A stretch of DNA of 64,000 nucleotides from Microthyrium microscopicum (GCA_010405405.1 MU004241.1:124001-188000), one strand, 5' to 3'; counted from the stretch's first letter, positions 3,424-46,684 are shown. Translations and numbers: made by a program. The notes: generated from the sequence alone by a model not told the origin.

Positions 3424-3680
3424 TCCTTTTTTTGTACTCTTGGGCCATGAAAACAGAATCTCAGAACTATATTTTTGGATATATAGCTGGTATAACTTTT
3501 TTTCATCATTATGCAACTCGAGTGTATTTATGCATTGTTTGACGCTTTGACCAGGTGATTTGAGCCTCAAATTGTGCAAGTCATCTTTGATGCATCTCCA
3601 AGTTCCAACAAAACATCCCTCTCGGAACAATCGCCAGGGGGAAGAGTCATCGCAAAGCGGGAGTCAGCGCCGACTATTTC

Positions 3681-11700: not shown

Positions 11701-11747
11701 GCCAGATTTCGCAAGTTGATTGTTGATTCGCCGTATGCTAATTCATT

Positions 11748-21032: not shown

Positions 21033-21914
21033 ATGGCCCAGACCGATCGACCGCGTCGACCGGCGCCAAAGCGGACATACAACGTAGATGACCTTGCCGA
21101 TCAGCAAGACAACGGAAAGCACTACGACCCGGAAGACCTTGTGGAGTGGCGCGGTAATGGTCGTGGCTCCAAGAGAAAAGTCGCCAGAGAATCCGGAAAC
21201 AAGAGCACTGATGAATACGAGTGTCAATCTGAGAGCGACGGTGATCTCTGCGAGATTTCAGAATCGGAATTCTCTGTCCACCAGAAATCGGTCTCTCCAG
21301 AACAAGAATTGCCGGACCACGAAGCTCAAGTCCTCCAGGAGAAGCTCCGCCTCGAGATACTCAGCTTCAAGAAAAGCCGCCCTGGCAAGAAAGCCCGCCC
21401 TATGCAGCTGCCACCCAACACCTGGTCTTCTTCAAGCTCAGATAGAATCAAGGGCGTACCCAATTCATCGTCAGCGCCGTCAGCACGCAGCACCAGCAGT
21501 CGTTTGTCTTCTTTTGCACCTGAAGCTAGTACTACAGCCACTCCCATTGAACCATCTGCAGCCTCTTCTCCTGCGCCGTTAGTGCCAGTCACATTCAGAG
21601 TGGAAGGCTGGGCTCGTTCTGGGCCGAATGTACTCGTATGTCACCCCGATGACCCGATGAAGGATCACTGGTCATACAAACGCGAGTTCGAAAAGTTCGT
21701 TGAGAAAATTGACGGTCAGTTTTTCCCTACCAGAGTTCTTTACCTTATCTATTCCAGAATCAGAGCAGAACTAAACATGGCCCAGCCAACATTCCAGATT
21801 GGACAATCAATCGTGTATGGTCTCGACGATCAGTTCGCGGTCACCTGGAAGGTTTCCTCACTCATTGTGCCTCTCAAGGCCCAGAGCACCCTCAAGAAAA
21901 GTATGAGTACCTGA
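21033..21914 (+). CDS. Hypothetical protein, ~293 aa (charged/Ser-rich N-terminus, short folded-looking C-terminus)
   Basis: Long GC-balanced ORF with ATG at 21033; no recognised motif. Confidence 0.55.
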   Translation: MAQTDRPRRPAPKRTYNVDDLADQQDNGKHYDPEDLVEWRGNGRGSKRKVARESGNKSTDEYECQSESDGDLCEISESEFSVHQKSVSPEQELPDHEAQVLQEKLRLEILSFKKSRPGKKARPMQLPPNTWSSSSSDRIKGVPNSSSAPSARSTSSRLSSFAPEASTTATPIEPSAASSPAPLVPVTFRVEGWARSGPNVLVCHPDDPMKDHWSYKREFEKFVEKIDGQFFPTRVLYLIYSRIRAELNMAQPTFQIGQSIVYGLDDQFAVTWKVSSLIVPLKAQSTLKKSMST

Positions 21915-23336
21915 AGCACTGGGCGCAAGAGATTGGTTTGTGGCATCGTGCTTCGTTTGTTCCTGATGAGCCTATCTCCTTTGACGAGTGGGAATTGGAT
22001 GCTACCCTGATCTGCCTCAAGTTGAAGAACCAGAAGCACCCGAAAATTGAAAAACCTTGATGCAAAATGAAACAATCGAGCTAGCATCCGTTTCTTGTAC
22101 TGGACTTCGTGAGAATGGATAATGTACACTGGCCCAGGTACTTAAAACATATCTTCAAACAACCACAATCACCTGCCTTCGCCCACTCTTACTTTTGTAG
22201 CGATTAAAATTAAGAGCTTTATAGTATAGCTGTATCTATAAGATTCTAGCGACGGACTTCAATATGGCTTATACAGTCTGATACGGCGTCTGATTGCGAC
22301 TGAAGTCTTCTTCCAATGCGATAGATGGCACGAATTTGTTGCTTATATGCTGCTTGTAAAGGCAATCAATAGTATCGATCCAGAAAACGGATCGATGACT
22401 CGACAAAATAAATGGCACGCTCCTATCAAGTTTGATATGTACTACCGCAATTTGTAGATAGGATACTTCGCATATTACTGTATTCAATACTCTACGGCCT
22501 CTTTTCCGTAGTCAATAGAAACACGGCTAGTTGATAATAGATTGTTTCGAATAAGAGCGAATGAAGCTAATAGAGAGCACTTCATCTCTTTTGTCCTTCG
22601 CTTGTGTTGACTGACATCGTCCCACGGCCCTATTTGAAGTTATGGATAGCCAGAGAAGTAAACCACCTATCAAGTCGTCTACCAGGCGATGGTATAGAAA
22701 AAGCTGCAGAGCTGCTGGCGATATCTCAACCATTGGAGCAATTCTCAGCGTGCTTCCTTATACAAATCTTGACAAGGGCGAAATTGTCTATCAATATCGA
22801 ACAAAAGAAATCCTCGCAGCCTACAAATATATGTTACTTGATCTACTGTTATATGTACCTCACAAGATGCGGAAAAAACTTCAAGTCCTAAACGATATGC
22901 AGCGATCTGTTGGCGTAAGTCCTGAAAGCTCGAAGTAATATTCCTATCTTCCGTCGAAGAAAGAACTTTTGAGATATCATGTACCAGTAAGGCTAGCACA
23001 AGTCTCACATCGATCAATTTTAAGATGATATAATAGGATGAAAAGTGACACATAATGGTAAGAACGCTCACGCCAGACTGTTACAACACGCTACTATATG
23101 GTTCGAAGCCGAAGCTGAAGTGTTGCGCTTTCTTCGAGAAACTAGTTCAAAGTGTGGATCTCATATATATTTATAAAAAGGCTATGGCGTTCAATCAATC
23201 TACTAAGAATAGAACAGCTTGCTGATTAGTATAGCGATAATATCCTGAGAACATTTGAGAATCGTCGAGGCACATTGGAACCAGCGTTCGCGAAGTACGA
23301 TTGGGATTTGTCCTTTTCTTTGCACTGTATTCCAGG

Positions 23337-25578: not shown

Positions 25579-26399
25579 TACGTTCAATAAAAGTCGTTCA
25601 ACTGTTGGTTAATGTCTGAGCGCCTTTCATAAAGTGGAATAGTATGAATGTTGGACTGAAGTTGACCATCAGGAAAAGGAAGGCCCGCATACGAAGCAGA
25701 GCTAGGTAGGATGTCTTATCGTATTTGGCGTCGGAAAGCTTTACTGGAAATAATGTAAGGAATTATCAAGTGAAGTAGGCAAATGTTTAAACGATAATTA
25801 GATAGGTTATCTTAGTTTCTCAGACGTAGCAAGCTGCTTTAAAAATAGGTCGCCTTTGGCTCCCTACTTAGTTAGAGAGCTTTTAGCTCTTGCTAACTAA
25901 GTATCCCTAGCTATCCTATATAGAATCTAGCTTGCCCTTAGCTAATTAAATATTTTAGGACGTACGTAATTTTAAAGTAGCTTATTATATCTAAGTAACT
26001 CTTATTCTATTTTAGTATATACTTACTTAATATTTATTAGTAGAAGTAATTATTTTTAAACTATATTATCTCTATAACTACTTATATTATTATATTAATT
26101 TTTATATTAGTTTAATTACCTTATTCTCCTTTTTAATTTATATTTATTATATTAATATAAAAGTATTACGCTAAATCTAAATATTTAGCCTAGAATAACC
26201 TAGTTAGTAGGGGTTTAATTATAACCCTAATATAATAATAGAAATAGCCTATCCTACTAAAATAATAATTTTAATTAGAAAGATAGTCTTTTTACCTTCT
26301 TAGGCCTATATTACCTTTTACTTTACTACTAAATTTTCTAATACTCTAGTTTTTTAGTTTATTACTTATCTATACTCTTTCTTCTACGTAGTTATAAAG

Positions 26400-29300
26400 T
26401 TAATATAGTAGTAATATAAAAGAGAATGAAGAAGAAGAAGATGTAGATAAGGAAGAATATAAAGAAGATAAAGAATAGGAAGAGTATAAAAAAGAGGAAG
26501 AATATAATAAAGAGAATAAATATAAAGAACTACGTAATATCTCTAGTACTTGCTTCTCTTTAGTATCCCTTATTCTTTCTTTTATTACTATACGTAGTAA
26601 TAAAATAATAAATAATAAGAAGCTAGATTTAGTACTTATATATCTTAACTCTATTAATTAGTTATTTACTAAGTTTCTTAATATATAGATTAAAATAAAG
26701 GAATACGATTAAAAGCTTACTATATAATATTAACTATATTAGTTAGTAGAATAACGTTAACTCACCTTAGACTCTCTACTTAGGTTTTACTATTTAATAA
26801 ATCTTATTAAGAGTAAGGAGTATTTATAAAGCTTCGTTAATAAATTATAAAACCTCTTAGATATACCTTAGTTTAGTTAGTTTAATTTTAAAGTAGCTCT
26901 AAGTTCTATTAACTTTATTACGAATATTAAGTAGTTATAGTTAGTAGCTCCTTAATAGGTAGCTTTTTATTATAATATAATATAGTATAATTAGAGTAAG
27001 TATAGTTTATATAAAGCTAGATTTTTAGGTATAGATAATCTATATATTTTTCTTATTACTACTATAATATATAGCTATTAAAATTATTAGAAGTTTAATC
27101 TTTTATATTTATATTTAGGTATATATCTTTATCATACTAGTATTAAAAAGAGAGTTATATAGACATTAGGTACGTTTAGTATTTATTATAAGTATTACTA
27201 TATTATATAGACTATAAATTAAATTACTAGCTATTTAAGAGTAAGATTGCCCTTTTTAGTAGTATTTTATTCCTTATTCTTACTTATTATTTATTATATA
27301 TTATTATAATAACCTTCTAGTGTTTCTCTTATAGCAAGATATAGACGTTAGAATACTTACGTAAGTATCTCTATATATTCTATATTTATCCTTACTACTC
27401 CTTACTAGCCCTTATTCGTTATAAGGCCTTTTAATATCTATATTCTATAGACTATAAATATTAAAAGGCTTACGTAAGTATCTCTATATCTCTTATAATT
27501 ATCTTTACTAGCCTTAAATATTCTAGAGTTAATTTATAACTTTACGTTAATATATTTATAGTAAAAGCTTACTATATTTGCCTCTAATCCTTATATAGGC
27601 TTTATTTATAATAACTTTAACTATAAGGATTAAATTTAGAATAAGAGAGTTAGCTATAGTTATATTATAAGAAATCTAACTATAGCTACTATAGTTAAAT
27701 ATCCTTATTATCTACCTAGTAGGTTAACTTAAGATATATATAATCTAATATATAAATTATCTCTATGCTTAATTATAAATTCCCCTCTTTATAAAGGGTA
27801 CTTAATTAGTAAACCTATAGCTAATACTATTAAGAAAGTCTTAATATATATAAGTTTTAAAGAAACCTTTAAGACTAAACTTAAGAATAGGTTTACTAAT
27901 AATAAAGATAAAAAGAAGGAACTAGTATAACTATAGCTTAATTAACTTCCCTTAATTAAAACTAAATATTAATAGCTTACTAGTATATTTAAAAATAAAG
28001 GTATTATAAATAGTATATATAATATATATTACAAAATCTTTATAGACGTACTTAAGTTTCTAAAATATAGTTTAGATAAAGTAAGTATATTAAGTATAAA
28101 CTTCTTATTAATATTTATAGCTAACTAACTTATTAATAGGCAAACCTTATATCTTTACCTATTAATTATTTCTTATATATAAAAATTAACTTAGTATAAA
28201 GAATAATCGTACTATAAAATCTAAGTAATCTTATTTATCTTAGGCCTTTAATTAAAAGGAGTAGCTTTATCTAATTATTAAGTAGTTTTATACTTAAAAG
28301 TATCTTAAAGAGAGCATTATTAAGAGCTATTAGGAACCTATTAACTACTATAAGTATGCTTTATATTCTATTAAGCATAATATTACTACTTAGGGTCGCT
28401 TAAAGAATAAAATATACTAGTCTATCTAGTTATATAAGCTAGAACCTATTTTATAATAAGTATTTAATACTTAAAACCTAGCCTTATTTAAGCTTACTTT
28501 ACGCTATTATAGATACTACTCTTTAAATATAACTTCTAATATACTAGTAAATAATATAATTATAGAAGATATTATTAAGATATTAATAGTAAATTAGGTA
28601 GTTAAAATTATTTAGAATATTTAAACTCTTATATATTAGGTAGAAGGTTAAACTAGTTTATATAAGAATAAAGAAGGTAGTATAATAGTACTAGAGGACG
28701 TTAATATTTAGTTCTAAACGTTATATTAATATATATAAGAGATCTACTTATTATTAATACTAAAGCATATTATTAAATATATAGATATTAGTTTACTTTA
28801 CTAGCTAATTAATCTTATAATATATTAGTTCTATAGGTCTAGTTCTAATAATTATAGTAATAAAATAATATAGCTTAAGTAGAATATACTAAATACTATT
28901 AATAAATTAGAGTTATAACGCGCTATACTAGCTTCTAGCCTAGTTAACTAGCTTAGTAAACTATATACTTATAAGGCTATAAATTTAGGCTTAGAATATA
29001 TAAATAGTAGTATAAAACTAGATATAAAGGCTTAAAAGAATTTAACCTATAATATTTATACTACTTTTAATTACATATACCTTATAAATAGTTTTAGTAA
29101 AGAGTTAAAAGCTACGCTAAAGGGTTTATTTAGTAAATATATATTTAGTATAAGGAGTATTACTATTATAAAGCATAACATTAATATAATATATAATACT
29201 TTAATTTAAGGTAATTTTATAAAGCATTAGTCTCTAAAGGCTATCTAGATTAGAAGAAATAATTATAACTCTTAAAATATATAGATACTTAAAGCCTTAA

Positions 29301-29540
29301 TGCTTACTAATAAGGTAAAGGCGTTTAATAAAAAGTATATAGTAATTCTAAGTTAAGCGCGTATAATACTTAAGAATAGTAGAGACGTTAAGCTAAAATT
29401 TAATACTAGTATAGTAATAGATTATACTTAAGCTTAAGATACTAAAAAAGAAGATAAGTTTAGTAACTTTAGAAATATTAATAGATTTTAACCTAAGTTT
29501 TTAAGTTAGTTTAATTATATATATTATAATAAAAAGGCTT
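26400..29540 (+). pseudogene. RIP-inactivated DUF6589-type putative transposase
   Basis: Read directly: GFIYNNFNYKD (27598-27630), RAILASSLVN* (28919-28951), KAINLGLEYIN (28973-29005). Reversing C>T/G>A gives YDNFxYKD, FExEGTxDG, HGDQL (~28178-28192), GWFH (~28280), K(H/Y)xDIGLL, NYGxEM, LVNWLG, KAIDLGLEHxN, KNSTHD. Confidence 0.75.
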
Positions 29541-29821
29541 AACTTATTAAATTTACTTACTTATTAGTAAAGAGTTATTTAGGAGCCTATTAGGCTAACT
29601 AGGTATTAGTAGATATAGTTAGTAATTTAGTATTTTTAGTTTATAACTTAGGAATTATCTTAACTTCTAAAGAGCTCTTATAATTTATACTACTTTACTT
29701 ATAACTACTTTTACTCTTCCTATTTATAAACCTATCCTAATCTAATTAGTTTTAAAGGTTTATTTATTTATAAGTAATATAGATATAGTACTATAGTAGA
29801 TACTAATTTTGTTTCTCTTAT

Positions 29822-29980
29822 TAACCTATAGGCTAATCTAAGCCTAGTCTTACTAAGCCTAAATATAATATTTAAGTCTCTTTTACTAACCTTTAGGCTA
29901 ATCTAAGTAACTCCTTGCTAAGCCTAAATATAATATCTAAGTCTCTCTTACTAACCTTTAGGCTAATTTAAGTAACTCCT
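29822..29980 (+). repeat. 65-bp tandem repeat, ~2.5 copies
   Basis: taacct(a/t)taggctaat(c/t)taag recurs at 29822, 29887, 29952. Confidence 0.8.
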
Positions 29981-32440
29981 TATATATTTCTATTATATTA
30001 GGTATTATCCTTTATAAGAAGTATTATAATATTAATAATATAGTAGATAAGATCTATTACTTTCCTCCTAATCTACTTACCTTTAGTATAATTAGCTATA
30101 AGTATTATAATACTAACTACGTTATAATACTAGTATCTATCTAATTATTCTAAACTTACTTATATTTAGTATTATTAATAATAAGTATTACAATGCTAAC
30201 TAAGTTATAAACTATAACTATCTTATTACTCTAAACTTACTTATTATTAATATTATATCTTATAACTAGGATACGCTAAAGTCCTTACTCTATATTATAC
30301 TAAAGGAAAGTAGTTAAAGTTTAAGTACTTATTAGATATCTAGCTACCTTACTACTAATTCTTTTACTATATATAATATTAAGTAAGACTACTATACTAT
30401 AATCTTTTACTTAGCGCTATATCTTCTTAGCTTTAACTAGTTTATTAGTTACTCTAGCTATAGATTCTTAGAGTTCTAAAATTTTATTTATATATTAGTT
30501 ACCTAAGTACTAGTTTTTAATACTAATAGTTCTATAAACCTTAAATAATATACTTATATATTAAATTTCTTTTGTATATATATTACTAATAATAAGCATT
30601 AAACTCTCTATAATAGCTACTCTTATCTTAATAATAATAAGATTCTATAGATAACTAACTAGAAGTTAACTTACGTAAGTAGTATTAAAAGCTTATATAT
30701 TTTTATTACCTAAGTTATTTATAATTATTTATATTAGCTATTTCTATTAGTTAGAATATATAAGAAAATATATAGAAAGACTTACTTCTATAAATAGTTT
30801 ATTAAATGCTACTCTTATATTAGAAGCTCTTATCTAATCTAGAAGGGGAGAGTTTAAGTACTAAATAGTAATAATAATACTAATAGCTTATATACTTACT
30901 AACTTTATATTATACTAAATAAAAGTAGTTAGAGTTTAAGTACTTTTATCTAATCTAGAAAGGGAGGGTTTAAGTACTAAATAGTAATAATAATACTAAT
31001 AACCTACTAAAGCCTAAATAAGACGCTTTTATAGTACTTAATACTCTTTATATTATTATAGATATAATTTTGACTATTAATAGTAATAATAATTAGTTAG
31101 CTAAAGTCCTTACTCTATACCGCACTAGAGGAAGATAGTTAGAGTTTAAGTACTTAAGCCTTATCTAAGAGGTAAGATTTTAATATCTAATCTATTCTAT
31201 AATACGCTAATTTATTAGTTTACCCTACTATAGCATGTATAGGCTAATTATAGACGAAGTAAAAGGAAGCAACCTTATAAGATTAGAACGCTCTTTATAT
31301 ATATCTTAAAGCAACTTAATAATAAGTATAGAATTAAGCATAGTAAAGTTTACCTAAGAATAAGTAGTATTATAAGTTACGCTAATATACTAGTATTAAT
31401 AAACGCGTAAATTTCTATAAGCCTTCTAGGTAATAGGATTATCTAGATACTAAGTTAGCTATCTTACTTAGAAGGGTTAATTTACTAGAGATACCTTCTA
31501 ATCGTAGTAAGGCTTTAATTAAAAACGAGTAGTATTATAAGTTATACTAGCGTATAGAAATTAATAAGTATATAAGTTAACTATCTTACTTAAAAGAGTA
31601 GATTTATAAAGGATACCTTCTTAATACTATACGTTGTAATAGTTATTAATAACTATTAGGGGTTCTATAAGCCTTTTAGACGCTAAGAATATCTAGGCAC
31701 TAAATTAGCTATCTTACTTAGAAGAACGAGCTTACTATACTATTTTATAAGTCTTTTTATTACTAGTAGCTACTCTTAGCTTTTTAAAATAAATAATAAC
31801 CTCTATTATAAGTAACGTAAGTAATATTTACTATCGTTTTAATTAAATACCTTAGTAGCAGCTCCTTCTATTTATAACCTATATATTAGGATATATATAG
31901 ATATATAGGTATTAATAGATTTTAGTAGGTATTAATAGGTTCTAGTAGATATACCTACGTAAGTAGTATTATTAGTAATAAGAATAACTCCCTAGTTAAA
32001 ATAGAAGCTTACGTTCTATAAAACTATAGATTTAAGAATACCTAATTAAAATAGAAGCTTACATTCTATTAAGATAGTAGATTTAAGAACTATAACTACC
32101 TAGTTAAAATAAAAGCTTATATTTTATAAGATAGTAGATTTAATACTATAATATAAGTACTCTAGCTATAAAGCATATAAAGAATGCTATATTAATTAGA
32201 AAATTAGTAATAAGAGTATAGTAATCCTTAGAAAGAATATAAAGAATAAGTTTTCTTAGTAAGTCTAGGTACTTTACTATCTTAAGCTTTAGCTCTACTA
32301 AATTAGGATAAAAGATTAGTAATAAGGATATAGTAATTCTTAGAAAGAATATACTAAATTAGTTAGAAGATTAATAATAAGGATATAATAATTCTTTAAC
32401 TCTTCCTCTTTTTCCTTTTCTTCTTTCTTTCTTTTTTAGT

Positions 32441-32770
32441 ACGCTAATAGCCTTAATATTAATAGTAAAGCACGCCTAGCAATACTTCTTACTACTTTTA
32501 GTTACTATCTAGTTTTTTAGTCTTTAATAGTTCTTTTACTACTATTACTTCCTTAAATTTAAGAACTTAACTACCCTAGTACGCTAATAGCCTTAGTATT
32601 AGTAGTAAAGCATACTAGTAATACTTTTTACTACTTTTAGTTACTATCTAGTCTTCTAGTCTTTAATAGTTCTTTTACTACTATTGCTTCCTTAAATTTA
32701 AGGACTTAACTACTCTAATATACTAATAGCTCTAATATTAGTAGTACTAAAGCATACTAATAGCCTTAGT
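32441..32770 (+). repeat. ~140-bp tandem repeat, ~2.3 copies
   Basis: acgctaatagcctt at 32441 and 32581, degenerate third start at ~32720. Confidence 0.8.
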
Positions 32771-32994
32771 ATTTTAGCCTAAGCTTAGTATATTAATAGT
32801 AGTAATATCTCTTAAAAGTCTATTATAAGCATATTCTAGCTACTTTCTAAAGAGACTAATACTATCCTCGTAATATTAGATTTAAACTTACTTAAAGAAG
32901 AATTCTTAAGGGTCTATAGAGTATAAATATCTTTCTTCCCTTATTTATCTTCCTCTTCTTCTTTTTCCTCTATATTATTTACTTATAGTACCTT

Positions 32995-33325
32995 TACTAA
33001 AGTATAAATAAGCTCTATAAAACTATAATTACTCTATTTTACTAAAATAATAATATAAAGTCTACTACCTACTTTAGGCTAATACTAGAGTATAAATAAG
33101 CTCTATAGAACTATAATTACTCTATCCTACTAAACTAATAGTATAAAGTCTACTACCTACTTTAGGCTAACGCTAGAGTATAAACTAGCTCTATAAAACT
33201 ATAATTACTCTATCTTGCTAAACTAATAGTATAAAGTTTACTACTTACTTTAGGCTAACGCTAGAGCATAAACTAGCTTAATAGAACTATAATTACTCTA
33301 TCCTACTAAATTAATAATATAAAAA
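32995..33325 (+). repeat. 88-bp tandem repeat, ~3.7 copies (extra single copy at ~40426-40518)
   Basis: ag(t/c)ataaa..agct..ata(a/g)aactataattactctat starts at 33001, 33089, 33177, 33265. Confidence 0.88.
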
Positions 33326-33450
33326 CCTATATAAGTTTAGAAGCACCTACTATAATATTATGCGCGCTTCTCTATAGCTCCTAATACTTAAGATTAATAC
33401 CCTTAAGGTAAGCTAGCTTACTTTGCTACTTTTAATAATACCTTTACTAC

Positions 33451-33690
33451 AGCTTTAGTTATAGCCTATTTAGGTATAGCTATTATAAAGAAGGTGCTTA
33501 TACTAGTAACTATAATAGCTTTAGTTATAGCCTATCTAGGTATAGCTATTATAAAGAAGGTACTTATACTAGTAACTATAATAGCTTTAGTTATAGCCTA
33601 TCTAGGTATAGCTATTATAGAAAAGGTACTTATACTAGCGACTATAATAGCTTTAATTATAGCCTATCTAGGTATAGCTATTATAAATAA
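33451..33690 (+). repeat. 66-bp tandem repeat, ~3.6 copies
   Basis: agcttta(g/a)ttatagcctat(c/t)taggtatagctattata at 33451, 33517, 33583, 33649. Confidence 0.9.
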
Positions 33691-36600
33691 GAAAAGAGCT
33701 ACTAGAAGTATTAATTAGTTAATTATATTAGTATTAGGCAACTACTAGATTAGCTTAACGTATCTATTATATTTAGTAGCTATAATTATTCTTAAAGCTT
33801 ATATTATAGAACTAGATATTAATCTAGTCTTTTATAATACTTAGAATATAACCTTCTTCTCTTTCTCTCCTTTTTATTAATTTAGTAGACTTATTCTTAT
33901 ATTTAACCTATAAGGAAGCACAAAACGAAGTAGTTAATATTAAGTACCTACTACTATATACCTTATTTAGCTTTAAATAGAAAGATATATAAGCATAATT
34001 ATTAGCTATTTATTATAAAAGGGTCATTATAAGATAATTAAAATTAGAAGTAAGTCTTTAATCTTTTATTATAGTATTAAAAGTAGACGTAATAAATAGA
34101 TACTTTCTTCTAAACTTATAGTAGTAAATAAGATCTTATAGACTTAGTTAATAAAACTAGCGTCTTAAATATAAAAGTCTATATTAATATTAATATTAAC
34201 TTAACTTCCTTATATTATTCTTTTATATTATTAGTATAGCTTAATATATATAGTATTAATCTTCTTTACTTAGGGTAGTATTATAGATATTGCTTTAGAT
34301 TAACGTAATAGATAAATAAAGTAGTAGAAGGTTAGGCTTTAATTAGTATATTCTAGTATAGTTTTATAATATATATTTAACTACTTAAGATAATAGTTAG
34401 ATAGTATTACGTTTAAGATAAGCTATTAGATAAATAAGTAGAGTAGTAATAAGGTAAATAATAGTAGTATATTATAGTATAGGTTAGTAATTAAGATATA
34501 TAAGTTAAACTAAATCTCTATACTAAAGTATATATATATTATATAAGATTATATTATTTAAGAAATATATAAATAGAATATAATTCTAAATAGTAGTAGT
34601 ATATAAACTAGTATAAGTAAACTTTAAATAATAATTAGCTATAGTATAAGTAAGAATATAATAGAATAAGTAGGTATACTTATATTATATTTATATATAG
34701 TTAGTTATTCTATTAGTTTGTAGCTCTAAAAAATGCTCTATTTTAAATATTTACTAAATATATAGTAGTTAAAGTATAAATTATATTAACTTAATTTAAC
34801 TTACGTTTTCTTTACTTCCTATTGTTAAATTGTTAGGCTTATTTTATAGACGTATTCTTTACTTATTATATTAAGATTTATTTACTTAATCTAATTAATA
34901 TCTTTATTCCTTTATAGCGACTTAAGATAGCGCTACTCTATTATTTTACGTTAATATTTAGTAACTAACCTTTATATTTTAACTAATAGAGAGCTTAAGA
35001 ACTATATTATAGTAATCTATATAATATCTTCTAATTTTTATTAAATAATATATACGTAGCCTATTAATTATAGATAGGTAGCCTAAGTATCTTAATACTA
35101 TATTTAAGAAACTATTTAAACTTAACCTTTTCTTTAATATTATAAACTTATATAATTATTAATATAAACTAAGTACTACTTATAGAGTAACCTTATTTAG
35201 TAGATAGCTACTTAGTATATAATTAAGTATATAAACTAGTAATAGCTTACTAAGTTGCTTATAACTCTTTATTTTATTAGTAGATAATATATAGCTATCC
35301 TAATATAAGTAGAAAGGCCTTATTTAGAATATATAGCGTATTTAGGCTATATTCTATACCTACTTATTATAAACTAATAATTCCTTAAGTAGAATTTATA
35401 AAGAGCTAATAATTAAACTTTAAGTATCTATAATCTTAGTAAATAACGTTTAATATAGGCTAACCCTAAAAAGATTAATTATAAAGTATTTAGCTATATT
35501 TAGGCAAGGTAAGGCATATATAGGTAAGGTAGAGCAAAGTAAGTATACTTATATTATTATAATCTAACTATAATCTCTAATATTCTATAATAAAATCTCT
35601 AAATTACTTAACTCTCTATATTCTAAACTTTACTAACTACTAATATTTACTACTATCTACTACTTTAAGCCTAATTCCTATAACTTTATATAGTTAGCTT
35701 ACCTAAAATCCTACTATTAATTATAATAAGCTTATTAAGCTTTAGGATAGTAGAGAAATATTAATTAAAATACTTATTAGCTATAATAACTAGATTTGCG
35801 TACTAATATTTTATTTTAGTAATAAATATCTCCTCTTATACTCTAAAGATAAGACTATTTATTACTAGGATATTTTATAAAAAGATACGTTATTCCTATA
35901 GCTTATTAGAAATAGCCTATATAGATAAATATAATACTAGTAGATAAGACTTAAGAATAATAGGTATAAGCTAAAATAATTTTAGCCTTATCCTAAGTAA
36001 ATATTTACTTACTAACTTAGTATTAATTAATATATTTTGCTAATTATATAATTACTTTGTCTTAATCCTAAAACCTTATTAAAAAAGGCGTAATTCTAAT
36101 TAATAAATATAAGAACTTTACTTTTATAATCCTAGTTAAGTAGAAGGCCTTAAACTTATAAGTCTCTAATATAAGTAGCTACTTAGGTCCTATATAGCTT
36201 AAAAGTTATCTAATAAAGCTATCTAAAAATACTATAACGTTTAAATACTAAACGTAGTAATAATATTTAATTAATATATATTAATATCTATAAGAACTCT
36301 ATAGTACTATATATTTATAGACTTTACTACGTTTAGAACCTAACAATTATACTATAAAGTATTTATAGTCTAATAAATATTTACTAGCTACGTATAGTAA
36401 ATATTTACTATTATCTTAAAGATTATTTAGTTATAGACTTTAAAGTTAACGTTACTAATAATAACTTAATAACCTAAGTTAATATTAGTATCTTTTACTA
36501 AAAACTCTTTTGCTTTTTAAGAACTATATAGTTTAGCTCTTTTGCTCCTTAAGAACTATATAGTCTAATCTTTCTACTTTTTAAGAACTATAATAGTCTA

Positions 36601-36744
36601 GTTTAATTATAGAGTTTATATACTATAGTCTAGTAGTAAAAGTATATACCTTAATTAAGCCTTTATAAAGTACTTAAAGGATTATAATATTTATATTTTA
36701 ATACTTATTATAAGTACTTATAGAATATAAACTTATCTTATTCT

Positions 36745-36950
36745 GCCTATCTCTTAGCCTTATATTATTCTAGGCTATTTTATTTATTAGTAATAACATA
36801 TATTCTTTTAGCCTAGATATTTATATCTACTATTATTACTAAACTATTTTGCCTATTTCTTAGCCTTATATTATTCTAGGCTATCTTATTTATTAGTAAT
36901 AATATATATTCTTTTAGCCTAGACATTTATACCTACTATTATTACTAAAT
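36745..36950 (+). repeat. 106-bp tandem duplication
   Basis: gcctat(c/t)tcttagccttatattattctaggctat at 36745 and 36851. Confidence 0.85.
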
Positions 36951-37934
36951 AGTAGAACTAATTATTACTAGCTAGGCATAGCTAAAATATTACTATATAG
37001 ATATAATATAGTAGATTACTCTCTAGCGTTAAACTATATACTATATATATTTACGCTAATTTAGTTATTACTTACTACTACGTTAAGGGTAATAATACTT
37101 ACTATAACTTTACGCTTTTACTATTAAGTTACCTTCTTAGTTTCTCTATTAATTAAACTAATAACTATTCCCTAATAATTTAGCGTTCTTATCCTTTCAT
37201 TTAATAATATAGCCTAAATATATATAGCAAAAGCTAATATATGCGTATATTAGTAAGTATAATAGTAAAGGTAGTTTCTATTTAACATAGCCTATTAAAA
37301 GCTAATATTAAAGCTAAAAAAGGATACAAGCTATCTATTGCTATTCTCTAAATACCTTTAGAGAATAAAGTAGATAGCGTTCTAATATTAGTAGAGCTAT
37401 AGTTAATAAGAACGTAGGTTTTAGTAGCAAGATAAATAAATAAACTAAAGATAACATAATATAGTAGCTTAATATACTAAGATAATTATTAGATTAAGAG
37501 AATAAGGTAGAAGATAGTATAGCGGATTAAGTTAATAGATTAGATTATTAGCTTATAGGTTTATATTATTTTAATCGTAAGAGTATAGTAATAATAACTA
37601 GTTCTAAAATTAATATCCTTTAAGATTCTTAATATTACCTAATTATCCCTAGATATCTTATATCTTACTAAATATACCCTTCTAATACCTAACTAGTTAT
37701 AAAGTTTAATAAAATACTAGACTACTTATTTTAGGCTAGTATATTCTATAGTTCTATAAGGTATATATTAGCTATATAGATATTATATATTTTCTAACTT
37801 TACTTATTTATAACTAACTATTTACTAATATTAATATTTATATTATAACGTATATAATAGATAATAAGACGATAAGAACGATATTATTAATATACCTAAT
37901 ATAATTAATTTAAATAACTATAATATATTACTAT

Positions 37935-38160
37935 ATACTTATAATGCTTATAACGTACGCCTTATAGGATACTTATAGCTTTTAGAGTAACTCCTACTTA
38001 CTTCTTATAGAACCTAATTAAATAATATAATTATAAAGATATTAAAGAATACTAAATATACCTATAACCTTATAATATACGCCTTATAAGATACCTATAA
38101 CTTTTAGAGTAATTCCTACTTACTTCTTATAAGACTTAATTAAATAATATAATTATAAAG
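37935..38160 (+). repeat. ~122-bp tandem duplication
   Basis: gccttata(g/a)gatac(t/c)tata(g/a)cttttagagtaa at 37959 and 38081. Confidence 0.8.
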
Positions 38161-41117
38161 AAAGCATAAGATATTAAACGCTTAAGTAGTTATCGTTATT
38201 ATAAGAAGTATATATTAATATATTATTCTATACTAACTACCTACTCTAAACTACTACTCTCTAAACCTTTGTCTTCTAACTAGTCTATAAACTAAATAAT
38301 TTACTTAGAGTCTTATACTCTATAACTTTACCCTTAGATTTATAATAATTATCTCTAAAGGTATAGTTCTTAAAAAATATAATATAATAGGCATAATAAC
38401 TTCTAGGATTCTTCTACGTATCTTTTACTTTCTACGTAAATTACTAATATTTTTATCTATGCTTAATATATACTAAATATATAGTAGTATCTAGTACACA
38501 TTTATTAAAAGTTATCTTTATTATATAGCTAATATTACTATATAGTTTTTTTTTTAGAATATTAAGATATTTTACTTCTTAGTAGTCTAAGACTACTATT
38601 TATTAAGTATAGTAAGATGCCTTACGTCTAGACTTAGCTTCGTTACTATAAAATACGGCTAGCTAAGGTTAATTCTAGCTATTAAGCTAGAGTTAAATTT
38701 TTATATAAGCACGTTATGCTTAGCCTTAGTAAGAATAGGGGCAGAAAGAAAGAGAGGGTTAAAATTAATAAGAGTCTTATCGTCTTCTTTGTCTTTATTA
38801 TCATTATTATTATTATTATCGTTATTATTATCGTCTATTAACTCATTATTACTAAAATTAAAGGGCAAACCTAAAAAAAAAGATAGCTTAGGCAAGCTAG
38901 ATATAAGAGAATCTAGAATAAAAAGAGGATTCTCTTCTTACTTAATAAGCGTAGCTAAATAAGCTTAATAAATAGCCTAGTAAGTATTAAACTTAACTTA
39001 CTAACTATAATTATTATTACTAATATCTATAAGTAATATATTAAAACTTATAAATTATTAAAGTTATAACGCTTTATAATATAACTAAAAATTCTATCCT
39101 CTAAATAAGTATATTTATCTTTTTAGCGTAGTATACTATAAGAAATTAACTTTACTTCCTTAATAAGCTAAGACAATAAAAGACTATTAAATAGCTAATA
39201 AGTAAAGATAATATATATATTAGGCATAGGATAGTATTAAGAGTATATCTTTCTTTTAAGGGTAGTAAAAGACGTAAATATATAAAGTTATAAAGTTAAG
39301 AAGTTAAAGTTTAAAAACTAAGAGGCATAAAGGCTTTAAAAAGACTATAATATAGTAGTTTTGCTATTTTAAATACTTAGTCTAATTAAGAGTATTAGCT
39401 ATTAAATAGTTATAATTACTTAATTTAGCAATACCTAGTTAGCCTATTATATCCTTATAAGGCTCTTATTTAATAAAAGAGATAGGATAGAATTAGTTAG
39501 TATATAAAGAGTATTAATAGCCTAAAAATTATATTAAAAGGGTATAATAAAGACCTAAGGCTATACTTCCTTAAAAGTAGTCTAGTTAAGTATAAAGAGA
39601 ACTACTTAAAAGAAGACCTAAAGGTATATAAAAATAAAGAAGAAAAGAGGATATATTTAGTATAGTAAGAAATATACTATTTAGGTAGTAGATATAATAG
39701 GTAGCACTTTATAAAGTTCTTACTACTACTTAATTAAGATAATAAAATTATAATATTAGTAGCCTTAATTAATTATAAAGAGTTATAAATAGTTAAATAT
39801 ATAATAAGAGTTACTATATAGTTTATACTTATTATATATATATTGTTTAGTTATAAAGTATAACTAGAATAGTAACAAGTAGAAAGTATATTATATCTAA
39901 TAAAAAGATTTATTAGGCATATTCTACTAGTATATTAATTACCTAAAGAAGAATATCTAGGCTTACTATATTATTTCTACCTAACCTAACCTCTACCTAG
40001 ACTAATAAAATAGATATATTATATAGTATTTTATTTATTAATACGTTATAAAACGCTAATATAGATTTATATAGTATTATTTCTTAGACTAAATACTATA
40101 CTAAAATTATAATCCCTATAACTTTAAATAACTATTAGCTTAAAGACTAACTCTCTACGTTAATAATATATACTATTCTTATATAACTTAATAGTTTTAA
40201 TCTAAATAGATATATTACTTTTAAAGAGAGTCTAGTAAAACTCCTCTCTATCCTTATAATAAAGATTTAGTAAAGTAATAACGATATTAAGAAAATATAT
40301 ATAGGAAAGGTTCTTAATAAAGAACTACTATAATATAATAAGTTACTAATAATAGAAGATAATAGGCTACTTAGCTATCTATATTATATTTCTTCTAATA
40401 TTCCCTAATAAGCATTAGAGTAACTAAGTTTACTACCTACTTTAAGCTAATGCTAGAGTATAAACTAGCTTTATAGAACTATAATTATTCTATCCTACTA
40501 AATTAATAGCATAGAGTCTTATAAAAGTTTATTAATATTATAATAATTTATAAGAAAGTCTTTATTAAAGAGTAAGATATACTACTAAAGAATAAAATAG
40601 ATAATAAAGATACTTACTACTAGTACTTTTTAATATATAGTACTATTAGCGCGCTTAATAGTATTAATATGCCTAATAGTTAATCTATTAAAGTTTAGCA
40701 TAGATTTAATACTACTAGTAATACTAACTCTATATTCTAAACTATATTATTCTTTAAGTAGTATCTTAACTATAGCTATATCTCCTAATATAGCTTAATT
40801 ACTATTTTTATAACTAAGAATAATTAATAGTCTCTTAAAGGCTAGCATATAAACTATACCTTTTAAGTAATTAAATAGTAAGACACTAAATATTCCTTAA
40901 TGCTAATTTTTAGCAAACCTGCTTAATTCTACGTTTCTACCTATAATATTAAAAAGTAAAGTACTTAAGCTACTAATAATTAGCTATATTAGCTTTATAC
41001 ACGAGGGATTAAAGTATAAGCCTTAGCTAAGTAAGGTTTACTTACTATTAGATTTTCTAATATTTAGTTCTTATTATAGTGTCTAGTTTCTATTACTTAA
41101 CAAAACTAGTAAGTAGG

Positions 41118-41290
41118 TAATACTAAGCAACGTAGAGAGGTAGAGCGTTATAGTAATACTAAGCGACGTAGAGAAGCGGAGCATCGTAGTAATATTAAGT
41201 AACGTAGAGAAGCTAAGCGTCATAGCGATACTAAGCAACGTAGAGAAGCTAAGCGTTATTATAATACTAAGTAATATAGAGAAGTTAAGT
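41118..41290 (+). repeat. 36-bp tandem repeat, ~5 copies
   Basis: Units start at 41118, 41154, 41190, 41226, 41262 ((t/c)(a/g)ata(c/t)taag(c/t)(a/g)acgtagagaag..); copies differ mostly by C/T and G/A. Confidence 0.9.
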
Positions 41291-41999
41291 ACTAAAATAG
41301 CTTTCTTACCTAAAAATATATATATTATATTTAAATAGATCTAAGTTAGGATACTATCTAGGTTTTACTAATACTTATAGTAATATTCTATTACGTCTTA
41401 GGAATACTTTAATATACTTACTAATCTTATATAAACTAGTAAATTTGTCTTTATTATTATACTTATAAAGAGCCTTCTTTATAATATATATTATAATATA
41501 TAGGCTTCGCAATAGGGCTTAATACTTAGATATCTATTTACTAAAGATATTATAATAATAACGAATAGGTAAAGTAGTTATAATAGACTAATAAATATAA
41601 TATACTATAAATATATATAGAAGAATATAACGCCTATAATAGATAAGAACCCTAAATACTAATATTTATAAACTTCTAAACTAAAAATATAAAATATAGT
41701 ACTTATATAACTATACTTACCTACTTCTTAGAATCCTATATAATTCTATATAGTTCCTTATAATACCTAAGCAAATAAAATAGTTAGAAAACTAAATATT
41801 TAGAATTATATATTAGGTTTAGCCTACTCTAATATTAGACGTAATATCTTTTTACTTATCTTTAATTCTCTTCTTATTAGTTAAGGAAAATACTCCTTTA
41901 TACTCTTTCTTATAGTCTTCTTAATAGTAATAGTTAAACTATTTTTCTCTAAAGTTATAGGTAAGGACTATCTTATACTAGCCTTAATTTAGTAATAAC

Positions 42000-44800
42000 G
42001 TAGTATTAACTAGCTTAATAAGTCTTAACTTAATAAATAACTCTTTTATTAAGCATAAGTTAAGTAATAAGTATAAAGAGTAGCAACTAGAATAATACTA
42101 TCTTTATTTAATATAGGTATTAGCTAATTAAATAGATTATTGTCTATATCTCCTTTATTATCTTTAGAATTAGTATCTATAAATCTCCTATATTTATCTA
42201 GGATATTACTATTATCTAAATCTATAACATTCTACTAATACTTAGTAAATAGTAAGGTTAGAATATTTATTAACGTAGAACCTCTAAATAAACTAATAAG
42301 AGTAAATATATATTTAATTAGCTAACTTATAAATAAATGAACCCTTTTATCTTCCTCTTATACTTTATAAGCCCTTTTTTATATTAACTTATTATCTATT
42401 AGTTTCTTAAGAACCTAGCGCTAAAGATTACTAGTTTAAGATAATATAAGTAGCTACGACTAAGACTTTAACTATAACACTATAACCTATATTTTCTTTA
42501 AGAGCTTTACTTTCTTAGCTATAAGGCGTGCTAAATAGTTAGCCTTATAAGTATCCTTATATAATTACTTAATAATAGTTTCTAGTTTTTAAAGGATAAA
42601 TAATAGTTTTCTCTCTAATATAATAGTATTAGTCTAATTAACTAAATTAAGAATATATATATATAATTTATCCTAAGTAGAATACTAAGTATTAAAAAGG
42701 AATTTAGTAGTATAGAAATAGGCTAGCTACCTAATTAAATTATTATCTAGTAACTAGTCCTTACCTTAAGGATATTTACTCTTATAATTATCCTCTATAT
42801 ATATAGCCTCTTCTATTACTAAAGACTAAACTTATAACTACGTTCTTATAATAGCTTTATAACTATTCTTATTTAAAGCCTACTTACGTAGTAGAAACGC
42901 TAACTAAACTAATTTATAAAACTTATCTAGATAGTATTTATTATAATATCTTAAAATTAGTATAGGATTATAATCTATTATCTAGAGTAAGAATTTACCT
43001 AGCTTATAGAGAATAGCTTCCTAGAAATAGTCTAAATAATTTATAATAACAAACTATTTATATAGGACTCTACTATAGGTTTTAACCTTAGCTTTAGACT
43101 AGAATAGAGGAATTAAACTAGGTATACTATTTAGTAGTATATTAGCTTCTTATATATTTATAACTAATACTTAAGAAGTAATAGACGTAATAGTAGATAC
43201 TTATAAGGTAGTGCTAGCTTTGCTTTTAATATCGCTATTATTAAATAGTAATTTAAGCTATAATATACTTAGACTAGCCCTATCCTAAATATAGAGTTAT
43301 TAATATTAAAGTAGCGTATAATTTTAAATCCTATATAAAGAGAATATAATCTAGATAGATTAAATAATTAGTAAACTTACCTAAATACCTTTCTATAAAT
43401 TAAGTTATTCTTATCTAAACATATTAAATATCTAATATAGAAGAAATACTATAGTAGTACTAAATAACTTATAACTATATCTACTATAATCTATACGCTA
43501 CTATAGATCTATAAGACTATATAGTATTAAGAACTCCTAAATAATAATTAATATAATATCTAATATATTAATACTAAGTCTTAGGCTTATAGTTATAATT
43601 ATAATTTAATAAAGTAAACCTAGAAGCTTAAATTCTTAGTACTAAACTATCTTATTATAGCTAAAGATAGTAGAAGTAATTTCTTAAATAAGGTTATAAA
43701 TATAATATACGCTATCCTTATTAAAGTAAGTATACTACTAGTTCTCTAAAAAGTCCTTAGTTAAACTAACTAAAGTAGCCTAAAAGTATTTTAATACTAT
43801 ATAGATCTTTAACTTGCTATTAATATATATAATAGTCTTTTTAATTAACTTAGAGGTAGCCTTCCTAGCCTTAGAGTTAACTATAGTATCTAAGATCTAA
43901 TAGAGTTTATTAAAAAATACTAACCTTTACTTAAGTATAAGCTTAAACTAGATTATAATATCCTAATAGTTAATAGAGGAGCGCATAATAATAGTTTATT
44001 ATTTATATAGTCCCTCTTCTTAGAATCTACTATAATAAAGAATAAACTATTATATAAGTAAACTTAAGGTGCTAGTATAACTAAACTATATAACGTCTTA
44101 GTATAGTATTATATAAAACTTATAAATTATAGTAAACTAAGACCTAAAATCCTACTATTATTTAACTAGGTAGTATTTATTAATAGCAACTATTCTAATT
44201 CTATTCTAGAAAATAGAATTACCTAATATACTATAAAAGAGCCTACTAGACATAGTCTTTAGTAAAATTAATATATAGATATACTAACTAGATATAATAT
44301 TAGTAGTAATATTCTTTAACTAGGTTATTATCTTACTATAAATAATAATAGGCTTAGACTTAGAGATAGCTAAGATACTATTAAATTATTTATCTTCTAA
44401 TTAGTTTATAGGAATTAACTATAAAGTAATCTTTCCTATTAATATAGAAAAGTTATATAGTATTAAACTCTTACTCTATTTAGTATAAGTAATAAGTAAA
44501 ATATTATAGCCTCTATATATTAGAAACCTTAAGGCCCTAACCTGTCTAAAATAAGGATTATAGCTAGTTAACTTCTATAAGTATAACTATAATATATACT
44601 CTTATATTTTAGCTAATAGCTAGATTTAAATAAATTATATAAGGGCGTAAATAGTATTAATTAATCCTAGTTATAAAGTAGTATATATAACTTTAAGTAA
44701 CCTCTTAGATTTCTAAAGGAGATAAGGTTTAGGTAATTATAAAAGTAAGTAATTAAGCTAGTTTTATTGTGGTAATTATAAGTACTAAGATTATAGTAGT
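42000..44800 (-). pseudogene. RIP-inactivated RecQ-like superfamily 2 helicase
   Basis: Minus-strand reading after reversing C>T/G>A: QVRALRFL, motif I AxTGWGKS (44490-44467), GKITLQLIP, YTHILISPE, motif II VAIDECH (44190-44170), QWxDFR, WFGCTSTL, motif V ATVSLGLGxD and VI DLWQRxGRGGR (~43600-43480), Zn-binding CYRK...CCNKCHP (~43050-42925). Ends approximate. Confidence 0.8.
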
Positions 44801-45046
44801 CTTAGTCTTAGTTTTAAAGTTTAGAGGTATTAGCTTATTTAGTTCTTCCTTTTACTTATAATACTATAAAAATAATATTAGTATTATTATTAAGGTATAC
44901 TATATAATAACCTATATCTAACTATTATACTTACTAACTTATAAATAATACTTACTAGTTAAGAAAGGAGTATATAGAACGGCTAAGGGTATATAAAGGT
45001 TTTATTAAGTTACGTAAGGATACTTACGTAAGCTAGATACTAATAA

Positions 45047-45257
45047 TACTAAAGGTATTAGAATACTAATAGTATTAGAATACTAATAGTATTAGAATAC
45101 TAAAGGCATTAGAATACTAATAGCATTAGAATACTAATAGTATTAGAATACTAAAGGCATTAAAATACTAATAGTATTAGAATACTAATAGCATTAGAAT
45201 ACTAATAGTATTGAAATACTAATAGTATTAGAATATTAATAGTATTAGAATACTAAA
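45047..45257 (+). repeat. 17-bp minisatellite, 12 copies plus a partial copy
   Basis: Unit tactaa(ta/ag)g(t/c)attagaa with exact 17-bp period from 45047 to 45251. Confidence 0.93.
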
Positions 45258-46684
45258 GCTAAGTCTAAAAGACGAAGTAAGGAGGATAAAGGCTATGCCT
45301 TTAAGCTTGTAAGATTTCTTAGCTATAATAAAACTACTATAGTAACCTACTTAATAAAATTAAGTAACGTAGAAACTAGTAAAGATATTACTAATACTTT
45401 TATATAGTTATTTAGTACTAAAGTATTAAAGACGTTAGAATAATAGAGCTACTTAAATACTAGAGCTTGCTCTTTTTTATAAGACTCTCCTAGTCCCTTA
45501 TCTACCCTTCGCTAGAGCTACTAATTTACTACAAAGAGTAGGTAAGAGACTAGAAGGGTCTTATAGGAATACTTATATAAGCCTAGTATATAGCTAAAGG
45601 TATAAAAATAATAAAGAAGAATACTACTAAATATATAAAGAGTAATAAAAGGTGAATATAGGCTATTTAGGGACTTATAGGGACTTATAAGGATGCTTAT
45701 ATAAGTAAAATAAAGATAGTAATAAGAAGTCTTAGTAAAAAAAAGGCTTAGTCTAACTAAATATAAAATTAACTAAAAGATAAATAGGAATCTATAACTA
45801 TACTATTTAATAACAAAAATAAATATATAAAGTAATAAAGTAGCTAATTATAAAGCACTACGTAGTATTTTAAAGTAATTAAATTATATCATTGTTATGT
45901 AGTAAATAGCTAATAAAGGAGGATAAATATTAAGCAAGTTAGTATTTTTTTAGGTTATATAGGAATTATATTACTAGAATAATTAGAAGGAGTAGTAACT
46001 TAAAAATATATTTATTTAAAAGCGTAGTTAATTCTGTACAATTTCTTTTTAGTAGATTTAGTAATTTATATACCTATTTAGCTAAAGACGTCGTAATAGG
46101 TAAATTAAGCAAAAATATTAAGCGGCTTGCTAATAAATAGGAATAAGAGTCTCTTAGACTACACAGCAAAAAGCTAGAGGGAGTAGAATAAGCTCTGATT
46201 GGCTAGAATCTACCCCTGCACGTTAGTAGACGCCATATTTTTGCTGCTAGTCTAACTAAGTGAGATAATGGATAGGTTCATATGACGATCCGGATAATCG
46301 ACGCTAACCTCATGTCGTATTCGAGGAATAAGAGAGTAACCACGTGCGGCCTAGCGTATGAGCTTATTCGCATGGCATGTTGTGCTTCTTTCTCCAAAAC
46401 ACAGGTCAAGGGAGGGTATTCGCAGCTTGACCCGACTGTTCGTTCTTGGTTCAACTTCAATGACGGGCACATCGATGTCAAAGCGTATCCATGTCTTCAT
46501 ATCTCCGCTTTCGAGTTGCGCCGAGCGGCGTGATCAGTCGGCCATTGTATTGCACAAGTCCGACTGCTGTGATAAAGCCATGAGACTACTACGGTGTACT
46601 TAAACAGCTGAACGACAGCCATGGCAACTCAAATCCACCTCTCGTCTCCGACCTTCCTCAAGCTTTGCTTCAGTACATTAAAAA

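Follow-up and report, generated by a model that had tools for sequence, protein, structure and literature searches.

AcademH was reportedly described by Kojima in 2020, in Mobile DNA, as the helicase-encoding lineage of the Academ superfamily. In an excerpt of PMC10045372, AcademH elements are Academ elements that encode a helicase and have target-site duplications (TSDs) of 9-10 bp, and a passage of PMC10799480 records them from Basidiomycota, Ascomycota and Mucoromycota; the supplements of the latter paper mention none of DUF6589, PF20231 and Academ. We analysed a stretch of 64,000 nucleotides from Microthyrium microscopicum (GCA_010405405.1, MU004241.1:124001-188000), referred to throughout as the window, and conclude, with a probability of roughly 0.85, that positions 25807-46268 represent one copy, now dead, of a large cut-and-paste transposon of the Academ superfamily, of the helicase-encoding (AcademH-like) kind. 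It holds, in the order of its family, a gene for a DUF6589 DDE transposase on the plus strand, a cysteine-rich open reading frame (ORF) designated ORF3 on the minus strand, and a gene for a RecQ-family helicase on the minus strand. Every gene is destroyed by C>T and G>A changes, with a strong signature of repeat-induced point mutation (RIP). Like AcademH, this lineage joins a DDE transposase and a separate superfamily 2 (SF2) helicase gene within one element bounded by terminal inverted repeats (TIRs), occurs in fungi including Ascomycota, and is low-copy and long. The feature that defines AcademH, an SF2 helicase beside the transposase in one element, is present both in the relatives described below and in the window. 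Transposase type and helicase are shared with AcademH as reported, whereas the 8-bp TSD departs from the reported length and the third conserved, cysteine-rich ORF may be a further difference; the window copy, at 20.5 kb, is also RIP-dead.

Several other systems resemble this element in part. KolobokH, in the portion of PMC9587614 that describes it, is a fungal Kolobok lineage that encodes a RecQ helicase; it too pairs a DDE transposase with a RecQ-type helicase in a fungal element, and in Kolobok-1_CCri the helicase likewise lies on the complementary strand. KolobokH is set apart by a helicase located downstream of the transposase domain. A section of PMC12730594 gives a TSD of 8 bp as typical of Zisupton, Dileera and hAT. 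The TSD of Kyakuja is 7 bp. Repeated, AT-rich RecQ-like genes of about 1000 aa are reported near fungal telomeres in an excerpt of PMC4522978, and telomeric RecQ-like genes of fungi appear also in a part of PMC10989895. The helicase gene in the window resembles such telomere-linked (TLH) helicase genes in being repeated, AT-rich and RecQ-like, and differs from them in lying within a TIR/TSD-bounded element together with a transposase gene, in a block between ordinary genes. Starships are giant cargo-carrying transposons of Pezizomycotina that use a tyrosine recombinase (DUF3435). The present element is similar to them in its large size and possible interior load, and unlike them in its DDE transposase, TIRs and 8-bp TSDs, and in that the Pfam scan of its interior (29.7-41.2 kb) gave no cargo gene.

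The element stands out by composition. Positions 25807-46268 have 22% GC against 47% in the flanks; GC is 0.19-0.26 in each 1-kb window across 26-46 kb and about 0.47 outside. No stop-to-stop ORF longer than 105 aa occurs inside the block. RIP-mutated repeats are recognised by a TA/AT index well above 0.89, a (CA+TG)/(AC+GT) index well below 1.03, and AT enrichment restricted to repeats. Over 25750-46250 the two indices take the extreme values 1.69 and 0.107, against 0.75 and 1.28 in one flank and 0.68 and 1.31 in the other; further copies exist among contigs of the same organism, with differences that are mostly transitions. Lighter RIP extends about 200 bp outward into each flank.

The whole element measures 20,462 bp, and its termini and TSD coincide with both composition breakpoints. 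At the left, TTATCTTA begins at 25807 (terminus 25807-25826, plus strand) and is preceded by TAGATAGG at 25799-25806; at the right, TGAGATAA occupies 46261-46268 (terminus 46249-46268, minus strand) and is followed by TGGATAGG at 46269-46276. The two flanking octamers match as an 8-bp TSD in which the left copy shows one G>A change, in a TpG context, relative to the right copy. The termini are inverted-repeat partners: of the 20 outermost nucleotides of each, 14 are identical and 16 are RIP-compatible between the ends. A terminus and TSD pair within 400 nt to either side of both breakpoints appeared in 3 of 5000 local shuffles.

The same anatomy is seen in relatives. One metagenome contains two families of decayed copies, with about 90% identity within each: family 1, of about 10.0 kb with TIRs of about 225 bp (L034, L045, L047), and family 2, of about 8.6 kb (L021, L023, L024, L027, L028, L031, L032). 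Both have the termini 5'-TTATCTCA...TGAGATAA-3', and the left end in the window is of this type; the family termini that bound the window element are written 5'-TTATCT(C/T)A...TGAGATAA-3'. TSDs of 8 bp flank all 10 complete copies (seven exact, one with one transition, two with two transitions). The window was also compared with contigs from sequencing of the same organism, possibly from the source sample itself. In five contigs the match starts precisely at 25807 and runs inward, while the sequence before 25807 is unlike among them (consensus agreement 0.56); the element is therefore multicopy and its left end confirmed. Over 25824-26024 the summed contig depth is about six times as high as in the flanks, and transitions make up most of the differences listed. 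No ORF of at least 60 aa spans the reconstructed empty site. Matches to the relative X5 fall in 3 of 30 bins, none of them at the junction.

The transposase gene was detected by translating the block with stop codons read as X, in chunks of about 3.9 kb, for Pfam and phmmer searches. In this translation a plus-strand frame at 28727-29021 matches Pfam DUF6589 (PF20231) with E 5e-6 and 25.9 bits (cutoff 27). With the same frame, phmmer finds 111 proteins at E<=1e-3, 44 of them at E<=1e-10, the best (E 4.7e-32) being P0001, a DUF6589 protein of 1062 aa from Microthyrium microscopicum itself; all 19 matches checked against Pfam are DUF6589, with E values of 1e-49 to 1e-72. A word-indexed search with the frame gave no match. 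We then used a RIP-aware log-odds aligner, which scores each window codon as the probability of that codon given the reference residue, via an explicit C>T/G>A step. Residues 617-1004 of P0001 align to 28148-29344 with a score of 518.5 (388 pairs, 100 identical as they stand and 223 RIP-compatible), and residues 42-459 align in another frame to 26506-28086 with a score of 192 (417 pairs, 85 identical and 191 RIP-compatible); unrelated frames score 40-48. The whole gene is thereby mapped to 26506-29344, plus strand. Its N-terminal part, in the first frame (26506-28086), holds the remnant of the first catalytic motif, IYNNFNY at 27604-27624. The second frame (28148-29344) holds the catalytic core, with remnants of G-D-Q (LIYKNXLS, 28172-28195), of W..P..F-H (KXFYTXKY, 28280-28303) and of D...E (AINLGLEYIN, 28976-29005), besides RAILASSLVNX at 28919-28951. 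The frame change at 28086-28148 and an extra stretch of about 103 codons near 27.2-27.5 kb resemble introns or insertions.

What kind of protein DUF6589 is was examined in an alignment of 41 family members. Its conserved motifs are Y-D-N, G-D-Q, W..P..(A/G).F-H and D-L-x-x-E-H-x-N, with the key residues present as D in 22 of 23, D in 39 of 41, H in 40 of 41, D in 41 of 41 and E in 40 of 41. An AlphaFold model of the DUF6589 protein P0008 reached pLDDT 85.4 and pTM 0.86, and its top matches by VIA-align are the P element transposase (6p5a_A, Z 7.4, 255 residues aligned, rmsd 5.4), Hermes (8edg_A, Z 6.4) and ISCth4 (Z 5.9); the matches ranked below these are nearly all integrases, Transib, RAG1, Tn5 and Argonaute PIWI domains. 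An hmmsearch of the alignment against PDB sequences returned only three designed proteins, at E 0.13-0.6. No member of the alignment (0 of 41) matches KDZ, hAT, P or another transposase family of Pfam at E<=1, and a loose scan found no second family. A profile search found no longer fused forms of 1860-5000 aa. A separate search among near lengths gave 12 matches, all DUF6589 only, which carry no information on an XPG fusion of the Academ kind.

The link to Academ comes from the RNase_H_Academ hidden Markov model (HMM) in the supplement of Muszewska et al. 2017 (PMC5751038; after Yuan and Wessler 2011), of which states 1-23, 101-126, 178-228 and 433-457 were compared with DUF6589 by eye. In these portions, the model has f-D-N-w at states 2-5, g-d-q at 190-192, w-l-v-p-f-l-g-f-F-H at 214-223 and D-e-a-l-E at 450-454, corresponding in DUF6589 to Y-D-N-F/M, G-D-Q, W-x-L-P-x-P-A-x-F-H and D-L-x-x-E. 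The spacing agrees as well: with model states set against median DUF6589 residues, the second D and the H lie 32 and 35 apart, the second D and the E 263 and 259, and the two D residues 188 and 163. The position of G-D-Q in the model was foreseen from the DUF6589 spacing before that portion was inspected. We conclude from the four motifs and their spacing, compared by eye in these portions, that DUF6589 is probably the core of an Academ-type transposase, and the match at the four motifs together with the P/hAT-like fold is the reason for calling the element AcademH-like. Structural neighbours of the fold in atlas clusters come from Basidiomycota, Mucoromycota, Mollusca, Arthropoda and Cnidaria, which matches the range of fungi plus animals reported for Academ; an atlas search by features gave no usable match.

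The frames of the helicase gene gave no Pfam match in the X-read translation and no PDB match by phmmer. Two ways of reading through RIP were dropped. Matching motifs against any possible pre-RIP ancestor finds A.TG.GKS four times, against 3.9 times in shuffles; scoring by the best possible ancestor yields about 830 whichever frame is read and, with a positive expected score, cannot discriminate. The RIP-aware aligner does discriminate. E. coli RecQ scores 74.5 in one minus-strand frame; the remaining five frames give 39-47, and shuffled references 42.5±4.0 (n=60). By parts, residues 17-165, with motifs 0, I, Ia, II and the DFR extension, align to 44580-44125 with a score of 73.8 (null 33.0±3.7, maximum 43.6, n=100; z 10.9), and residues 288-339, with motifs V-VI, to 43608-43444 with a score of 46.0 (null 28.8±3.5; z 4.9). 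The zinc/winged-helix part (residues 340-520) and the HRDC part (520-609) of E. coli RecQ gave no significant alignment to the window (z -0.1 and -0.7).

Much higher scores come from intact helicase ORFs found beside DUF6589 genes in relatives: L012 (963 aa), L020 (992 aa) and L017 (at least 779 aa). All three carry DEAD and Helicase_C domains by Pfam, and none has an RQC or HRDC Pfam domain at E<=0.01. The best 37 PDB sequence matches of the L012 helicase are all WRN, RecQ, RECQ1/5/4 or BLM enzymes (E 2e-20 to 8e-9). Against the minus frame of the window these helicases score 577, 489 and 346, respectively, where other frames score 40-57 and 30 shuffles give 45.0±3.6. Residues 114-701 of the L012 protein align to 44556-42712 (587 pairs, 137 identical as they stand and 313 RIP-compatible). 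The helicase core so defined, 42712-44580 on the minus strand, retains motif I as TYTKXSKS (44467-44490), the DExH..DFR region (44134-44184), motif VI (43474-43503) and a CC..C stretch (42928-42954) conserved between window and relatives. With its SF2 core, motif 0, DExH motif and ..DFR.. extension, motifs V-VI, and RecQ enzymes as nearest relatives, it has the core features by which the RecQ family is recognised.

A preliminary description of this locus, made from the sequence without database searches, had proposed an ORF-free AT block killed by RIP, with a DUF6589-type protein on the plus strand and a RecQ-like helicase on the minus strand facing it; composition, RIP indices and the alignments above agree with it on each of these. 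The motifs that it recovered by reversing RIP are indeed there as mutated remnants; degenerate matching of that kind performs at the chance level, so that its method alone is no evidence.

That the two genes belong to one element is best seen in JGI metagenome contigs. The 41-sequence alignment gave no conserved stretch suited to a locus search, and an alignment of eight closer DUF6589 proteins was used instead, yielding 63 loci. With E. coli RecQ as probe, a helicase was found in five of these; with the L012, L020 and L017 helicases as probes it was found in 27, in every case downstream of the DUF6589 gene and on the opposite strand. Of the 23 loci whose downstream sequence reaches 5.5 kb or more, 18 have it. 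Between the two genes, 37 of the 63 loci encode a domain of about 120 residues rich in cysteine, ORF3, which lies on the strand of the helicase (minus) in 36 of the 37. ORF3 has no Pfam family, only a faint likeness to DUF3716/Zn_clus (E 0.08). In the window, a RIP-aware profile of ORF3 scores 76.8 in the minus frame at 38386, against 38-48 in other frames and 52.3±5.7 (maximum 68.1) for 40 column-permuted profiles, placing its remnant at 38384-38668. When interior ORFs of the relatives are compared with the interior of the window, ORF3 alone recurs; high scores at 33.4-33.7 kb were rejected as low-complexity artefacts inside a tandem array. With helicase and ORF3 both matched, the window thus shows the gene order and orientation of the family.

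These results bear out several further claims of the preliminary description: that DUF6589 is a transposase, now supported by D/D/E-type motifs, an RNase-H-like fold, and TIRs and TSDs around intact relatives; that both genes are parts of one element, since the pair is co-located and convergent in 27 of 63 loci and the window helicase is specifically related to those helicases; and that the element was multicopy, as the five contigs with unlike flanks show. Intact homologous gene pairs, which it had suggested seeking elsewhere, exist in L012 and L020, and the termini and TSD that it had left to be defined are found in 10 relatives and the window. It would have been abandoned had the proteins failed to match their profiles or the genes proved not to be co-located elsewhere, and neither was the case. 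Its AcademH-like assignment stands as to the helicase partner and the four motifs of the Academ HMM, and does not as to the TSD, which is 8 bp instead of 9-10 bp.

A number of points weigh against the interpretation as an AcademH-like element with the ends given. The TSD is the first: it measures 8 bp in the window and all 10 complete relatives, where the excerpt of PMC10045372 gives 9-10 bp for AcademH, and shifting the ends by 1-2 bp yields no 9-10-bp TSD in the flanks inspected. As to the ends, a terminus and TSD pair with at most one mismatch arises somewhere in the window in 79 of 300 shuffles, and the window itself contains a second terminus-like pair at 37566-44554, with a one-mismatch 8-bp flank (GGTTTATA/GGATTATA); it is taken as chance, since AT-rich shuffles commonly produce pairs of this kind. 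A Smith-Waterman search for inverted repeats at the edges scored 26.5 against a null of 26.1±3.5, and the right end is identified only by motif and TSD. As to the transposase, the P0008 protein as folded is without the first catalytic strand, Z values below 8 are middling by the note of VIA-align itself, and Foldseek against PDB returned nothing at E<=1e-3 (best E 0.17). The comparison with the Academ HMM covers 5 of about 19 parts of the supplement and is unscored; within it, states 101-126 share nothing with DUF6589, and the first D-N is followed by D-i-k-P in Academ as opposed to N/E-F in DUF6589. Of the 23 loci with at least 5.5 kb downstream, five have no helicase (L029, L040, L043, L048, L057), single ORF3 references match the window with z values of 3.7, 2.2, 0.1 and 0.7, weak for three of the four, and about half of the element is without identified content.

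That half lies mostly between the transposase gene and ORF3. The 10 complete relatives are 8.6-12.3 kb long, against 20.5 kb for the window element; about 9 kb separates transposase gene and ORF3 where relatives have about 1 kb, and about 3 kb separates ORF3 and helicase. The interior at 29345-38383 contains short tandem arrays, found with TRF, with units of 65 nt (29814-29982), 139 nt (32437-32797), 88 nt (32996-33323), 66 nt (33451-33691), 106 nt (36739-36949) and 122 nt (37933-38161), and an isolated copy of the 88-nt unit of the array at 33.0-33.3 kb is found at 40426-40531 (97-100% identity over 94-106 nt in an alphabet collapsed for C>T/G>A). No Pfam domain was found in six X-read frames over 29.7-41.2 kb, by a scan so insensitive that it missed the helicase too, and no LTR-like or nested TIR pair was found in the interior in the RIP-collapsed alphabet.

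This extra interior most probably derives from nested insertions that can no longer be recognised. We give about even odds to the version in which one or more unrelated transposons inserted into the AcademH-like element before or during RIP and contributed the additional 9-10 kb. RIP-affected AT blocks of ascomycetes are commonly mosaics, one relative (L047) carries an insertion of its own, and the 88-nt unit at 40426-40531 would fit an array that an insertion had split or rearranged. Set against this, neither a reverse transcriptase, integrase or other transposase domain nor an LTR or TIR pair was detected in the interior, and the two 88-nt sites have ORF3 between them, so that a simple single insertion is insufficient.

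The preliminary description had called the element unusually large and possibly cargo-carrying. Its size is borne out by comparison with the complete relatives; cargo is unsupported. It is improbable that the extra length represents true cargo, in the sense of accessory or host-derived DNA that sits between transposase gene and ORF3 and is mobilised with the element. The excess over all 10 complete relatives speaks for cargo, as do the failure to find the LTR or TIR pair of a nested element and the tandem arrays, which total only about 3 kb; against it, relatives have only about 1 kb at that place and the six-frame scan, insensitive as it is, detected no protein domain over 29.7-41.2 kb. Somewhat less probable still is the more specific proposal that the window copy is a cargo-carrying giant of an undescribed Academ sublineage marked by an 8-bp TSD, TTATCTCA termini and three genes. 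If it were true, helicase-assisted DDE transposons of Pezizomycotina could carry along some 10 kb of additional DNA and so provide, beside Starships, another way of moving large cargo.

We consider it unlikely that the transposase is of another superfamily, either one with 8-bp TSDs (Zisupton or Dileera of KDZ, hAT, P) or KolobokH, and not of Academ. Besides the TSD length that the section of PMC12730594 gives for Zisupton, Dileera and hAT, these superfamilies share with DUF6589 a DDE core of RNase-H fold in which a long insertion precedes the catalytic E, and the nearest structures are the P element and Hermes transposases; KolobokH, as noted from part of PMC9587614, is fungal and encodes a RecQ helicase. 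No KDZ, hAT or P domain of Pfam is found in any of the 41 DUF6589 members at E<=1, and there is no C/DxxH motif, the signature of Kolobok and also of hAT and P: the residue three before the H is A, G or S in 37 of 40 members and C in 2 of 40. The four motifs match the Academ HMM, including G at that position. The TSD of Kolobok is 4 bp, and we know of no RecQ-like helicase partner in the KDZ, hAT and P superfamilies.

Independent RIP of two unrelated adjacent relics, a DUF6589 gene or transposon and a TLH-type RecQ-like helicase, is very improbable despite the repeated AT-rich RecQ-like genes near fungal telomeres (in the parts of PMC4522978 and PMC10989895 cited above), as the same convergent pair occurs in 27 loci from many metagenomes, the window helicase is closest to those partners, both genes lie within a single TIR/TSD pair in 10 relatives and the window, and the block sits between ordinary genes.

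For an AcademH-like element of this structure, the following course of events may be proposed. The transposase would cut at the inverted termini and integrate with an 8-bp stagger. Helicase and ORF3 would act as accessory factors, the helicase probably unwinding or remodelling DNA of transposon ends or of gap repair, and ORF3 probably being a zinc-binding DNA-binding protein. The multicopy state would have exposed all copies to RIP during sexual cycles, with leakage of about 200 bp into both flanks. The additional 9-10 kb between transposase gene and ORF3 would most likely be later insertions or internal expansion and not functional cargo.

A part of bioRxiv 10.1101/2025.10.24.684071 lists DUF6589 among possible virulence factors or epigenetic regulators. 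With the present assignment the Pfam family would gain a function, as the catalytic core of Academ-type DDE transposases, and expansions of DUF6589 in fungal and animal genomes would be interpreted differently. The exact termini, 8-bp TSD and three-gene order define the anatomy of a lineage of helicase-bearing DDE transposons that is common in soil fungal metagenomes, and the intact copies L012 and L020 allow the role of a RecQ-like helicase in cut-and-paste transposition to be tested. The log-odds RIP-aware aligner recovers genes from relics of 21% GC where Pfam and phmmer fail.

Further features were noted in the window. A 17-nt tandem array of 12.5 copies lies at 45045-45256, between the 5' end of the helicase gene and the right terminus (TRF). 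The genes flanking the block are ordinary: TRAPP Trs85, DUF2293, a 3'-5' exonuclease, TRM5/TYW2 and a short-chain dehydrogenase, the match to the last being weak. In the left flank, 21050-21270 and 22400-22450 show extra contig matches, a joint marked "goes back 91", loose ends and a depth raised 2-4 fold, which suggests small repeated sequences outside the element. GC dips to 0.357 at 11000-12000, where the surrounding flank has 0.44-0.53.

Other observations concern the relatives. Four copies of about 10 kb from one metagenome (L034:651-10646, L045:734-10740, L039:392-10330 and L046:8953-18041) differ by singleton changes of which 1140 of 1141 are transitions; CpA is the commonest context of C>T change in these copies (155 of 371) and CpG is also frequent. 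The transition excess indicates that a process of RIP-like or methylation-linked kind acted on the relatives in the host that carried them. The insertion in L047, mentioned above, is of 2.16 kb at 1744-3907, within the transposase region as compared with its family-1 sister copies. Examples of ORF3, all on the minus strand, are L006:7698-8642, L009:4850-5386, L015:2509-3267 and L018:4497-5093; the C-terminal domain has six spaced cysteines, with the consensus ...CTACQA.GEECWVYSKKG.QQVSRPGDTCARCRVAAR.GGCSL. Just upstream of its element, L028 contains an inverted duplication of 2.5 kb with 87% identity (764-3252 and 6974-9462), and a further inverted pair of 772 bp is found in the same contig at 1-772 and 18071-18842.

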